Part shown: piece by piece, positions 4,284 through 4,730 of the stretch
Layout: each line of letters starts with the position of its first letter
Position numbering within the stretch: the first letter of the stretch is position 1
Virus record (IMG/VR): IMGVR_UViG_2526164652_000007
DNA length: 7,979 nt
Strand: one strand, 5' to 3'
Origin: a virus
Lineage: Duplodnaviria > Heunggongvirae > Uroviricota > Caudoviricetes
The notes under the pieces: model-generated
What the model was told of the DNA's origin: nothing
The model's database searches: none
Seen by the model: the letters and a program-made list of their open reading frames with translations, nothing else
Made by a program: the position numbers and the translations under genes

Positions 4284-4675
4284 ATACATATCTGGATTAT
4301 CACCTGTTACGGTAAAAAGTGATTGCTTACTGTTTTTGTGAATGGCATTGCAGCAGCCGGATAATGTCAGTGCCGGCTGACGGTGTGCTGGTGGCGGGTG
4401 TGGTGGTTGTTGCTTTCCCGTTGCTGAAAAAGAAAACGCCAGACTGTTAGCCGGGTATCAGTTAGCGGGAGAAATTTTTAAATACTTCACAATTCAGGCG
4501 GTTGACTGTTGTCTGGTTTGCGGGGAGTTTGTTAAAAGAAACTGGCATGGTGAATCCCCCTGTGCGGAGGGGCAATCAGCGAGTAGGTATATGGGATAAT
4601 CGCGGATTCAGGTGCTGGTACTGAATTCACCGGGAGGCACCCGGCACCATGCAATGGCACATAGCGCCACTCTCC

Positions 4676-4711
4676 AGCCCCTCTCCGGAGGGGCTGTTTA
4701 TATTGATTTTG
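4676..4711 (+). terminator. intrinsic-terminator-like hairpin at the end of the GC-rich intergenic island
   Basis: Perfect 8-bp stem AGCCCCTC (4676-4683) / GAGGGGCT (4688-4695), loop TCCG, followed by the T-rich tract GTTTATATTGATTTTG. The T-tract is on the plus strand only. Confidence 0.5.
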
Positions 4712-4730
4712 TCAGATGTGAGTAAACTCC

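Follow-up and report, generated by a model that had tools for sequence, protein, structure and literature searches.

In this study, we asked what occupies the roughly 390 nucleotides that separate the stop codon of ORF A (3930-4283, TAG at 4281-4283) from a strong terminator hairpin in the window, i.e., the whole stretch of 7,979 nucleotides analyzed here from the Caudoviricetes record IMGVR_UViG_2526164652_000007. A sequence-only reading had regarded this interval as long for a 3' UTR and had offered three alternatives for it: a small RNA, perhaps derived from the 3' UTR, a small-peptide gene, or the decayed remnant of a GC-rich gene. The sequence features that it listed were all found where it had placed them, but the interval is not a single element. 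The small RNA applies to 4516-4705, which carries a full-length member of the STnc100 family (Rfam RF02076), and the decayed remnant applies to the peptide ORF, which retains the 3' two-thirds of a DUF3927 gene, the 5' part and the TerB partner of this gene having been replaced. We consider it likely that the interval consists of two separate, previously described features of lambdoid prophages, namely a DUF3927 remnant and a complete gene for a trans-acting STnc100 sRNA. Both parts are already catalogued, the first as the end of a DUF3927/TciB-like gene and the second as a phage-borne sRNA. ORF A (PHROG 2873), a cargo gene with no relation to either part, meets them at about 4351, and the interval does not represent one long 3' UTR of this ORF. 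The description of the interval as a GC-rich island holds for 4501-4700 (G+C 0.555) but not for the 4300-4500 half, which reaches only about 0.48; the G+C content of the surroundings is 0.33 at 3801-4000 and 0.27-0.35 at 4701-5300. The features are collected in Table 1.

Table 1. Features of the interval between ORF A and iraM, in positions of the window.
Feature	Position	Strand	Basis
5'-truncated DUF3927 (TciB-like) small membrane-protein gene remnant	4319..4450	+	Pfam PF13064, PHROG 1470, RefSeq
Recombination junction; left, unrelated cargo (PHROG 2873 ORF 3930-4283), right, DNA in common with intact TerB-DUF3927-STnc100 loci	4351..4351	.	BLASTN
Conserved region upstream of the sRNA gene, putative promoter	4478..4544	+	homology with Stx-phage copies
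Conserved box TCACAATTCAG	4487-4497	+	putative promoter region
TTGACT	4502-4507	+	putative promoter region
TGtTAAAAG	4530-4538	+	putative promoter region
STnc100 match (Rfam RF02076)	4516..4705	+	cmscan 132.4 bits, E = 8.7e-30, model positions 1-206 of 206
Structured 5' domain of the sRNA	4545..4652	+	covariance model R1, minimum-free-energy fold, covariation
Helix P1	4545-4552 x 4645-4652	+	minimum-free-energy fold
Helix P2, loop UGUGC	4555-4572	+	minimum-free-energy fold
Pseudoknot AUCAGCG x UGCUGGU	4575-4581 x 4613-4619	+	pseudoknot partner-permutation test
Helix P4	4604-4611 x 4621-4628	+	minimum-free-energy fold
Helix P5, CCGGG-AGGCA-CCCGG	4630-4644	+	minimum-free-energy fold
Linker/tail AAUGGCACAUAGCGCCACUCUC, mostly single-stranded, candidate target-pairing (seed) region	4653..4674	+	family variability, PasD seed position
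Intrinsic terminator, stem 4675-4696, loop UCCG, then UUUAUAUUG	4675..4705	+	terminator scan, Rfam alignment, fold

The Rfam match lies well above the gathering score of the family (47 bits), and its first ~29 nt (from 4516 on) are probably promoter DNA rather than RNA. Our own covariance model, R1, matches 4542-4655 with 100.2 bits. The minimum-free-energy fold of 4545-4705 (-69.5 kcal/mol, z = -2.96) is not equalled by any of 200 shuffled sequences and reproduces helices P1, P2, P4 and P5. This z-score, the E-value of the Rfam match and that of the Pfam match described below (5.6e-26) place the features beyond chance. Taken together, the Rfam alignment and the fold reveal the structural elements of STnc100: a closing stem, the CCCCC/GGGG, variable and CCGGG-AGGCA-CCCGG hairpins, and a 3' terminator. 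The hairpins that had been pointed out in this segment are real and belong to the sRNA. UCCCCC/GGaGGGG (4555-4572) is its helix P2, CCGGG/CCCGG (4630-4634 and 4640-4644) its helix P5, and the stem of nine pairs (seven of them G-C) at 4675-4696, followed by TTTATATT, its intrinsic terminator. Four ORFs within the sRNA, 4502-4624(+), 4532-4660(-), 4627-4779(-) and 4649-4789(+), were rejected as genes since they have no Pfam match and overlap covarying helices.

The 447 nt between ORF A and iraM recur, with an identity of 99.8%, in many E. coli genomes, including that of strain 042. Matches are present in 2860 of 5426 genomes, with a median of two and up to 12 copies. A search of genome contigs with a 27-nt pattern, which is too specific to measure taxonomic breadth, returned only E. 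albertii and E. ruysiae. Within the window, the Q antiterminator gene (2601-3422) and tRNA genes (3566-3819) lie upstream, which places STnc100 in the late region downstream of Q; in the uninterrupted equivalent of E. coli 042, holin and lysozyme genes follow. In phage VT2-Sakai, a 208-bit STnc100 copy begins ~75 nt after stx2B. Few sRNAs are annotated in bacterial genomes as often as STnc100 (PMC9029176), and sequence variants of the copy downstream of stx2B have been reported to predict haemolytic uraemic syndrome (PMC12711010). The family matters on both counts, and also because one of its copies immediately follows the genes for Shiga toxin 2.

Homologous loci, which the sequence-only reading had named as a check, lend strong support to the structure. 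The STnc100 helices covary across 101 distinct relatives: 94.5% of the cells pair compared with 43-48% when the partner column is slid, both-sided changes occur in 19 of the 27 pairs, and the observed values were reached in none of 500 shuffles. Sub-families differ by one nucleotide in the register in which the J2/3 strand faces the P4 loop; for the pseudoknot, we therefore scored the best run against a partner-permutation control instead of counting pairs in a fixed register. Cognate strands average 6.7 contiguous pairs versus 4.57 +/- 0.16 for re-paired strands, a value as high as the former being absent from 10,000 permutations. In STnc100, the 5' domain forms a four-way junction that covaries strongly and includes a pseudoknot absent from the Rfam consensus. 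Its P2 loop (C-UNNGC-G) and the whole of P5 hardly vary across STnc100 copies; among loci fetched by a P2 anchor, the exact 17-mer is present in 124 of 146 copies.

The opposite holds for the tail, which varies more than any other part of the family: three unrelated tails occur among scaffolds that share 95% identity or more with that of the window, and scaffold and tail recombine independently of each other. This independent recombination and the pseudoknot are demonstrated here for the family; as far as we found, neither is part of the Rfam consensus or of the publications consulted. The published seed of PasD, UGUGAG, sits in the equivalent tail (PMC8550237). The U-tract of the window copy is interrupted (UUUAUAUUG) compared with UUUUUUU in sister copies, which could bring about weaker termination or Hfq binding.

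The DNA preceding P1 is regarded as the putative promoter of the sRNA gene. Homology with Stx-phage copies starts at window position 4478-4487 (query position 195-204), and in copies of the E. coli type TTTGTTAAAA precedes P1 by a constant 7-9 nt. Many STnc100 relatives carry canonical TTGACx-17/18-TAAATT promoters that end 7 nt before P1; a sigma-70 consensus search upstream of 108 copies found clear in-register promoters in only ~20. In the sub-family of the window, the TTGACT box lies 25 nt from the conserved TAAAAG, and the consensus scan listed no -35/-10 pair that is both canonical and in register. As the pair is ambiguous for this sub-family, we do not commit to a single transcription start. 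The published 5' end of PasD2 (741157) corresponds to the first nucleotide of its P1 helix (PMC8550237). STnc100 copies also form tandem arrays in which each unit has its own terminator, with three to five divergent copies next to phage tRNA genes. The promoters of the relatives, the PasD2 5' end and these self-terminated units argue for an independent gene, and the first two make the suggested origin of the sRNA from a 3' UTR improbable.

We propose the following model. The STnc100 gene (~4545-4703) probably has, by analogy with its relatives, a promoter of its own immediately before P1, and transcription would stop at the intrinsic terminator. The predicted RNA of ~160 nt would comprise three parts, a pseudoknotted four-way-junction 5' domain, a variable tail of ~22 nt and the terminator hairpin. 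Following the examples of EcOnc27/sRNA103 and PasD1/2, it probably acts in trans in the lysogen, presumably in association with Hfq, with its tail pairing with host and prophage mRNAs. The 5' domain may be a conserved scaffold that stabilizes the RNA or binds proteins.

A simple seed-pairing model leaves the conserved 5' domain, the variable tail and the nearly invariant P5 hairpin ACCGGGAGGCACCCGG unexplained. Tentatively, STnc100 could be regarded as a modular "scaffold plus swappable tail" RNA, in which the 5' domain binds a conserved cellular or phage factor and an exchange of the tail by recombination retargets that factor. It is rather doubtful, though deserving of attention, that the 5' domain would itself be the effector and bind, titrate or recruit CsrA, Hfq, ProQ or a small ligand, leaving the tail as a spacer or swappable guide. 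Such a role would fit a conservation pattern that is the reverse of that of a classical seed sRNA, since it is the scaffold that covaries, with a P2 loop and P5 that hardly change, while the tail is hypervariable. A pseudoknotted four-way junction also exceeds the structure needed for stability alone, and a C-G-GGA motif is found at the apex of P5. In addition, PasD2 is part of the most abundant CsrA-bound chimera of EPEC, and sRNA-guided targeting of CsrA was demonstrated for another sRNA, PasE (bioRxiv 10.64898/2026.08.12.744399). PasE, however, is a 56-nt unrelated RNA that we rejected as a relative, and it thus provides an analogy for CsrA guiding only. Moreover, PasD has lost P5, yet is abundant, Hfq-dependent and reaches many targets via its tail, and only half of the GGA of P5 is located outside the stem, unlike the usual presentation to CsrA.

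We think it improbable that the element is a cis-acting module at the end of a cassette, which would terminate and stabilize upstream cargo transcripts (stx2AB, TerB-DUF3927) and yield the small RNA as a 3'-UTR by-product. The element invariably marks the 3' boundary of the cargo slot, immediately behind stx2B or DUF3927, it ends with a strong terminator, and the Rfam model includes upstream sequence, all of which would suit such a module. But a DUF3927 gene precedes only 22 of 135 STnc100 copies, tandem arrays of three to five copies have no coding gene in between, and many copies possess their own canonical promoters. The upstream gene in the window is, furthermore, a truncated remnant, and a bare terminator needs no covarying four-way junction.

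A riboswitch-like attenuator of downstream late genes is highly unlikely and was rejected: although a conserved pseudoknotted multi-helix domain with an intrinsic terminator 22 nt further on has the classic aptamer-plus-expression-platform layout, there is no co-oriented regulated gene downstream (the next gene, iraM at 4731-5066, is convergent, and >600 nt lie before the next ORF in the same orientation), tandem copies are self-contained units each with their own promoter and terminator, identical scaffolds carry unrelated tails and terminators and hence no conserved terminator/antiterminator alternative, and homologues accumulate as stable Hfq-bound RNAs. The trans-acting sRNA remains the reading that we prefer for this part of the interval.

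The other part begins upstream of the sRNA gene. Its 28-codon ORF, which had been recognized before (ATG 4364 to TAG 4448-4450, product MSVPADGVLVAGVVVVAFPLLKKKTPDC), starts at an in-frame internal ATG of an ORF of 43 codons from GTG 4319. The longer ORF matches Pfam PF13064 (DUF3927) with 90.7 bits (E = 5.6e-26; gathering cut-off 25 bits) and PHROG 1470 ("TciB-like") with 44 bits over its residues 12-40, and RefSeq assigns the same ORF in E. coli 042 to the DUF3927 family. Over the C-terminal 32 residues (SSRIMSV...LLKKK), identity to E. coli and Shigella members amounts to 93-100%, whereas residues 1-11 of the 43-aa ORF bear no relation to DUF3927. A TBLASTN comparison, which had been proposed as a check for a pseudogene remnant, gave a match to residues 26-53 only of a 57-aa DUF3927 protein. 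Intact relatives count 53-57 aa and have a second, N-terminal hydrophobic segment; their gene overlaps the end of an upstream TerB-domain (TciA-like) gene by 4 nt, and this coupling to TerB was seen in 6/6 intact loci examined. In contrast, the window ORF lacks the native start, the N-terminal hydrophobic segment and a preceding TerB-domain gene, whose place is occupied by the PHROG 2873 ORF, and it does not encode a complete DUF3927 protein of ~50-57 aa with both hydrophobic segments. BLASTN homology to the intact loci L004-L009 covers window 4351-4703 and begins at base 75 of their DUF3927 gene. A recombination event at ~4351 would have removed the start codon, the first hydrophobic segment and the overlapping upstream TerB partner. 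Remnant and sRNA would travel together as the right-hand end of a cargo slot that extends from the Q antiterminator/tRNA genes to the nanS-p/lysis genes.

The remnant ORF at 4319-4450 is most likely non-functional, and translation of a 28- or 43-aa product from it is possible. That this product functions as a small membrane peptide or as a type I toxin, possibly under the control of the adjacent RNA, has very little probability in our view. The hydrophobic stretch followed by KKK had prompted this proposal, the 28-aa and 43-aa versions are still annotated as proteins by PGAP on >1000 contigs, and the ORF adjoins the sRNA in 22 copies. Nevertheless, ATG 4364 is an internal Met codon of the 57-aa protein, of which the native start and first hydrophobic segment are gone, and compared with its relatives the window ORF has a Leu-to-Pro substitution inside the remaining hydrophobic segment. 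Truncated alleles (P0023, P0025, P0042, P0043) show frameshifts, duplications and other indels, including a deletion by which the ORF has become fused into the sRNA. The adjacent sRNA runs in the same direction as the ORF without overlapping it and begins ~95 nt past its stop codon, and 113 of 135 STnc100 copies do without such an ORF. A scan of 4300-4712 with Rfam covariance models gave no match to toxin-antitoxin RNA families on either strand at E <= 1. Membership of a type I toxin-antitoxin system was rejected, as there is neither an antisense or overlapping antitoxin RNA nor an intact toxin frame with its own start.

In summary, an apparently odd 3' UTR of 390 nt resolves into a gene remnant and a catalogued sRNA gene, which mainly amounts to a clean annotation. 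The pseudoknot, the near-invariant P5 and the exchange of scaffold and tail represent concrete mutational targets for studying prophage RNA function in lysogens.

Several known prophage RNAs invite comparison with the window copy. IpeX of DLP12, an sRNA encoded next to nmpC, likewise comes from a prophage and lies between Q and the lysis genes; kinship was rejected, as K-12 positions 570000-580000 contain no match to Rfam STnc100 or R1. The anti-sRNAs AsxR and AgvB (RF02703/RF02702) occur in the same prophage neighbourhood, AsxR of VT2-Sakai being found directly after the STnc100 terminator. They are encoded on the opposite strand, measure ~55-60 nt and are unrelated in sequence to the window sRNA, and neither is matched in the window at E <= 1 in the Rfam scan.

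PasD1 and PasD2 of EPEC E2348/69, homologous to EcOnc13, are closer. Their locus has the same order of DUF3927 gene, sRNA and SASA esterase gene, and they have P1, P2, the pseudoknot and P4 in common with the window copy. PasD is experimentally Hfq-dependent and ~172 nt long, with its 5' end at the first base of P1; its stability needs Hfq, its targets are known from RIL-seq, and its seed is located in the tail (PMC8550237). PasD2 lacks the P5 hairpin that the window copy has, scores below the Rfam threshold (41 bits versus 47) and reaches 29 bits with R1, and it differs from the window in its tail (seed UGUGAG) and its terminator (GGCUGCGCAUGGCGCGGCC). Since the alignment shares scaffold elements only and both tail and terminator differ, an assignment of the window copy to PasD was rejected; it is a canonical STnc100.

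The nearest counterparts are the STnc100 copies of Stx phages. Northern blotting confirmed one of the copies of EDL933 (PMC5331693), and the Stx2a copy, known as EcOnc27 in Sakai and sRNA103 in EDL933, binds Hfq and upon overexpression alters the transcript levels of fimZ and espA (PMC12711010). The window copy deviates by a short variable P3 insert, by a tail (4653-4674) unlike that of the Sp5 copy, by iraM in place of the convergent AsxR/AgvB-type gene that comes after the Sp5 copy, and by the DUF3927 remnant in place of stx2B as its upstream neighbour. With STnc100/EcOnc27/sRNA103 it shares the same helices, the same type of terminator (GCCCCUCUCCGGAGGGGC) and the same position between the Q/tRNA and nanS-p/lysis genes.

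The GC-rich interval at 4300-4712 joins a protein-gene remnant to a small RNA. Its 3' part (4516-4705) is a copy of the Rfam family STnc100 (RF02076), matched by cmscan over the whole model with 132.4 bits against a gathering score of 47. A sequence-only reading had listed an ORF with its translation, three hairpins, a terminator and a step in G+C, all of which are present where it placed them. The CCCC/GGGG hairpin corresponds to helix P2 of the sRNA, the CCGGG/CCCGG hairpin to helix P5 and the 8-bp stem to the terminator, and G+C reaches 0.555 at 4501-4700 with flanks of 0.27-0.35. 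These features lie beyond chance, with E = 8.7e-30 for the RNA family, E = 5.6e-26 for the protein family and an sRNA fold better than all 200 dinucleotide-preserving shuffles (z = -2.96). Of the interpretations offered in that reading, the small RNA and the decayed gene remnant are borne out and the type I toxin-like peptide is not. The features themselves are already known from Rfam RF02076 and Pfam PF13064, and the identical sequence is found in hundreds of annotated genomes.

The sRNA is widespread. A 447-nt query from the region matches 2860 of 5426 complete E. coli genomes, at a median of 2 and a maximum of 12 places per genome, as well as 285 phage records, mostly of Stx-converting phages. 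In the phage records similarity starts at query position 195-204 (window 4478-4487), which is the start of the sRNA unit and not of the ORF. In phage VT2-Sakai, a 208-bit copy begins about 75 nt after stx2B. The same locus carries AsxR (88 bits; L133:2737-2789, minus strand) on the opposite strand immediately past the STnc100 terminator, the two genes being convergent and nearly abutting. Strain EDL933 has 11 STnc100 copies, all 11 with transcriptome reads and one confirmed by northern blot (PMC5331693). The Stx2a-phage copy, sequence variants of which are reported to be predictive of HUS, overlaps EcOnc27/sRNA103, an sRNA bound by Hfq (PMC12711010). In addition, STnc100 has been found in outer-membrane vesicles (PMC12370729).

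The 28-codon peptide ORF lies in frame at the 3' end of a longer one, of 43 codons, that starts at GTG 4319. It matches Pfam DUF3927 (PF13064) with 90.7 bits as well as PHROG 1470 ("TciB-like"), and carries the label DUF3927 family protein in the E. coli 042 entry of RefSeq. Complete proteins of this family retrieved by database search count 53-57 amino acids (e.g., MTVKMRLAVVALLLFLVVMVVMVDFSSRIMSVLADGVLVAGVVVVAFPLLKKKASGD) and contain, as judged by eye, two hydrophobic segments; they share with the 28- and 43-residue versions only the stretch from SSRIMSV onward. At six loci the intact 57-residue gene overlaps the 3' end of a TerB-domain gene by 4 nt and is followed, about 490 nt later, by a nanS-p-type esterase gene or an iraM-like gene. 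BLASTN homology to the intact loci spans window 4351-4703 only, with 4351 corresponding to base 75 of the intact gene, and tblastn matches residues 26-53 and no others, which marks the window ORF, on these alignments, as a 5'-truncated remnant. Unrelated cargo has replaced the TerB partner as well as the gene's own start codon and first hydrophobic segment, and the ATG at 4364 corresponds to a Met codon inside the intact gene. Database entries for truncated alleles show frameshifts, small duplications and even a deletion fusing the frame into the sRNA (entries P0023, P0025, P0042, P0043, P0005). The window allele has a Leu-to-Pro change in the remaining hydrophobic stretch and is identical to a 28-residue protein (P0019) that is annotated in Shigella flexneri, with at least 1000 contigs carrying it. 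Together, these data suggest relaxed constraint, in line with a remnant. The sequence-only reading had likened the peptide to type I toxins, yet two defining features are missing, an RNA partner and an intact conserved frame, so that a functional toxin peptide is unlikely.

Insertion sequences have disrupted the lambdoid prophage whose late region makes up the window (see table). In E. coli 042 the same region is uninterrupted, with 99.8% identity to the 447-nt query, and continues into holin, lysozyme and terminase genes; in the window, holin and lysis genes are absent 3' of the DUF1737 fragment. Three insertion sequence pieces lie within 8 kb, two being IS3-family elements (HTH_Tnp_1 and rve) and the third the start of an HTH transposase, which follows the Rfam 'sok' match (99.8 bits, threshold 59) within about 75 nt. 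Relative to the DUF968 gene, hokD of E. coli 042 is on the left, whereas the hok/sok match of the window is on the right, beyond an insertion sequence, and the hok reading frame appears to have been cut or displaced through IS activity. The abundance of insertion sequences in the source genome would fit Shigella, and so would the Shigella-type allele (P0019) of the remnant ORF. The iraM gene (NCBIfam NF007393, 162 bits) is prophage cargo encoding an anti-adapter that protects RpoS; its stop codon lies 26 nt from the end of the STnc100 match. The ORF upstream of the remnant ("ORF A" in the sequence-only reading) belongs firmly to PHROG 2873 (229 bits), a family whose function is not known; it has an internal terminator-like hairpin at 4119-4137, and RefSeq leaves its counterpart in E. 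coli 042 unannotated. The short region directly 3' of Q (3423-3529, plus strand), closed by a good terminator, probably represents the pR'-tR' late leader, the position of lambda 6S RNA and StxS. A Trp_leader match there is weak (27 bits, threshold 41) and most likely due to chance. ARAGORN calls the first tRNA gene tRNA-Met (CAU), the identical gene in E. coli 042 is labeled tRNA-Ile in RefSeq, meaning a tRNA of the lysidine-modified ileZ type that Stx-like phages typically carry. It is followed by a single tRNA-Arg gene, compared to two in VT2-Sakai.

Table. Features of the window and, in the last row, STnc100 tandem arrays on phage contigs (L-numbers)
Feature	Position	Strand
IS3-family transposase fragment	387-725	-
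DUF968 gene	1168-2217	
RusA	2230-2586	
Q antiterminator	2601-3422	
Terminator directly 3' of Q	3503-3522	
tRNA-CAU	3566-3641	
tRNA-Arg-UCU	3743-3819	
PHROG family 2873 ORF (ORF A)	3930-4283	+
iraM gene, convergent with the sRNA	4731-5066	-
DUF1737 fragment	5311-5514	
Complete IS3-family element	5928-7084	-
hok/sok RNA match	7537-7708	
Start of further transposase gene	7782 onward (7782-7979 within window)	+
STnc100 tandem arrays	L021:2265-3380, L031:342-1038, L047, L084:4349-5513, L134:2665-3322	

At the family level, the analysis additionally revealed a covarying pseudoknot, a near-invariant P5, exchange between scaffold and tail, and tandem arrays beside tRNA genes. When viral contigs were searched for the P5 core, 120 loci came up, divergent examples of which were confirmed as STnc100 by Rfam. 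A covariance model of the 5' domain (R1) was built from 40 representatives, and its 135 hits (101 distinct) were realigned. Standard pairs occupy 94.5% of the cells among the distinct sequences, compared to 43-48% after the 3' partner has been shifted by 1-3 columns. Covariation, which had been suggested as a check on the hairpins, is indeed found: 19 of 27 pairs show changes on both sides, and none of 500 shuffles reaches the observed values. It occurs at every position of P1 and P4 and at three positions of P2 (CCCCC..GGGG, GCGGC..GCaCGC, CCUUUC..GAAAGG). While the P2 stem varies, its loop C-UNNGC-G (window 4560-4566) stays constant and is almost invariant even in very divergent copies. The strand directly 3' of P2 is complementary to the P4 loop, and both change together between sub-families, from AUCAGCG (4575-4581) with UGCUGGU (4613-4619) in the window to CCAGUC/GACUGG, CUAGACU/GGUCUAG, GAACUGGCA/UGCCAGUUC and CAGUUAA/UUAACUG elsewhere, with at least 12 distinct complementary pairs in the family alignment (A4; L011-L180). 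The longest run of pairs averages 6.7 with cognate partners vs. 4.57 +/- 0.16 with permuted ones, and 0 of 10,000 permutations attain the cognate value. Together with this pseudoknot, which is not drawn in the Rfam consensus of RF02076, P1, P2, P4 and P5 form a pseudoknotted four-way junction. P5 (window 4630-4644; ACCGGGAGGCACCCGG) is likewise nearly invariant across very divergent copies, its exact 17-mer being present in 124 of 146 copies collected by the P2 anchor, with single substitutions in the rest. This conservation suggests that P5 and the P2 loop constitute a putative sequence-specific recognition element.

Canonical TTGACx-17/18-TAAATT promoters occur in about 20 of 108 distinct upstream regions, the -10 box ending 7 nt before P1, and the first base of P1 in the related EPEC sRNA PasD2 is its published 5' end. 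E. coli-type copies, including that of the window, have a conserved TTTGTTAAAA 7-9 nt before P1, preceded by a TTGAC(T/A) box (window 4502-4507). Since the spacing between both boxes is non-canonical in the window's sub-family, we place the transcription start near 4545 only as an inference from homology. With this start, the sRNA would measure about 160 nt and comprise the 5' domain (4545-4652), a tail (4653-4674) and the terminator (4675-4696 plus UUUAUAUUG). A further box, TCACAATTCAG (window 4487-4497), precedes the TTGAC(T/A) box by about 5 nt in most E. coli-type copies. It is retained even when sequences farther upstream diverge and may represent an operator or UP-like element.

Scaffold and 3' tail recombine independently of each other. 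Three unrelated tails occur behind scaffolds with at least 95% identity to that of the window (compared in L065, L074, L077, L101 and L044), one of which resembles the PasD tail and terminator, and the window tail also occurs behind a scaffold of only 79% identity. The P3 insert and the tail are variable, and the junction, P2, pseudoknot geometry and P5 are conserved. Phage contigs contain tandem arrays of 3-5 divergent copies about 220-480 nt apart, most with their own terminator and a few with none obvious. The arrays often lie beside tRNA genes and sometimes beside IsrI (RF01392).

The best supported model is that of an independently transcribed prophage sRNA acting in trans in the lysogen. 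It would associate with Hfq and pair with mRNAs via its tail, as experimentally shown for PasD and suggested for EcOnc27. However, tail pairing leaves the conservation of the 5' domain unexplained. According to the main rival model, the 5' domain itself is a binding module for a conserved factor, with the tail as guide or spacer. We give this model a rather small chance, but it is worth testing because PasD2 is heavily CsrA-associated and an sRNA-guided CsrA mechanism has been shown for PasE, an unrelated sRNA. A riboswitch and a purely cis-acting role as "cassette terminator" are both unlikely.

A 2026 preprint ties STnc100 to the EPEC sRNAs PasD1/2 (10.64898/2026.05.13.724894), Hfq-dependent RNAs of about 172 nt that use a 3'-tail seed to pair with their RIL-seq targets (PMC8550237). 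The PasD2 locus has the same layout, with a DUF3927 gene, the sRNA 41 nt later and then an esterase gene, and PasD2 shares P1, P2, the pseudoknot and P4 with STnc100. Yet, PasD2 has lost P5 and scores below the Rfam STnc100 threshold (41 bits; 29 bits with R1), which makes the copy in the window a canonical STnc100 and not a PasD.
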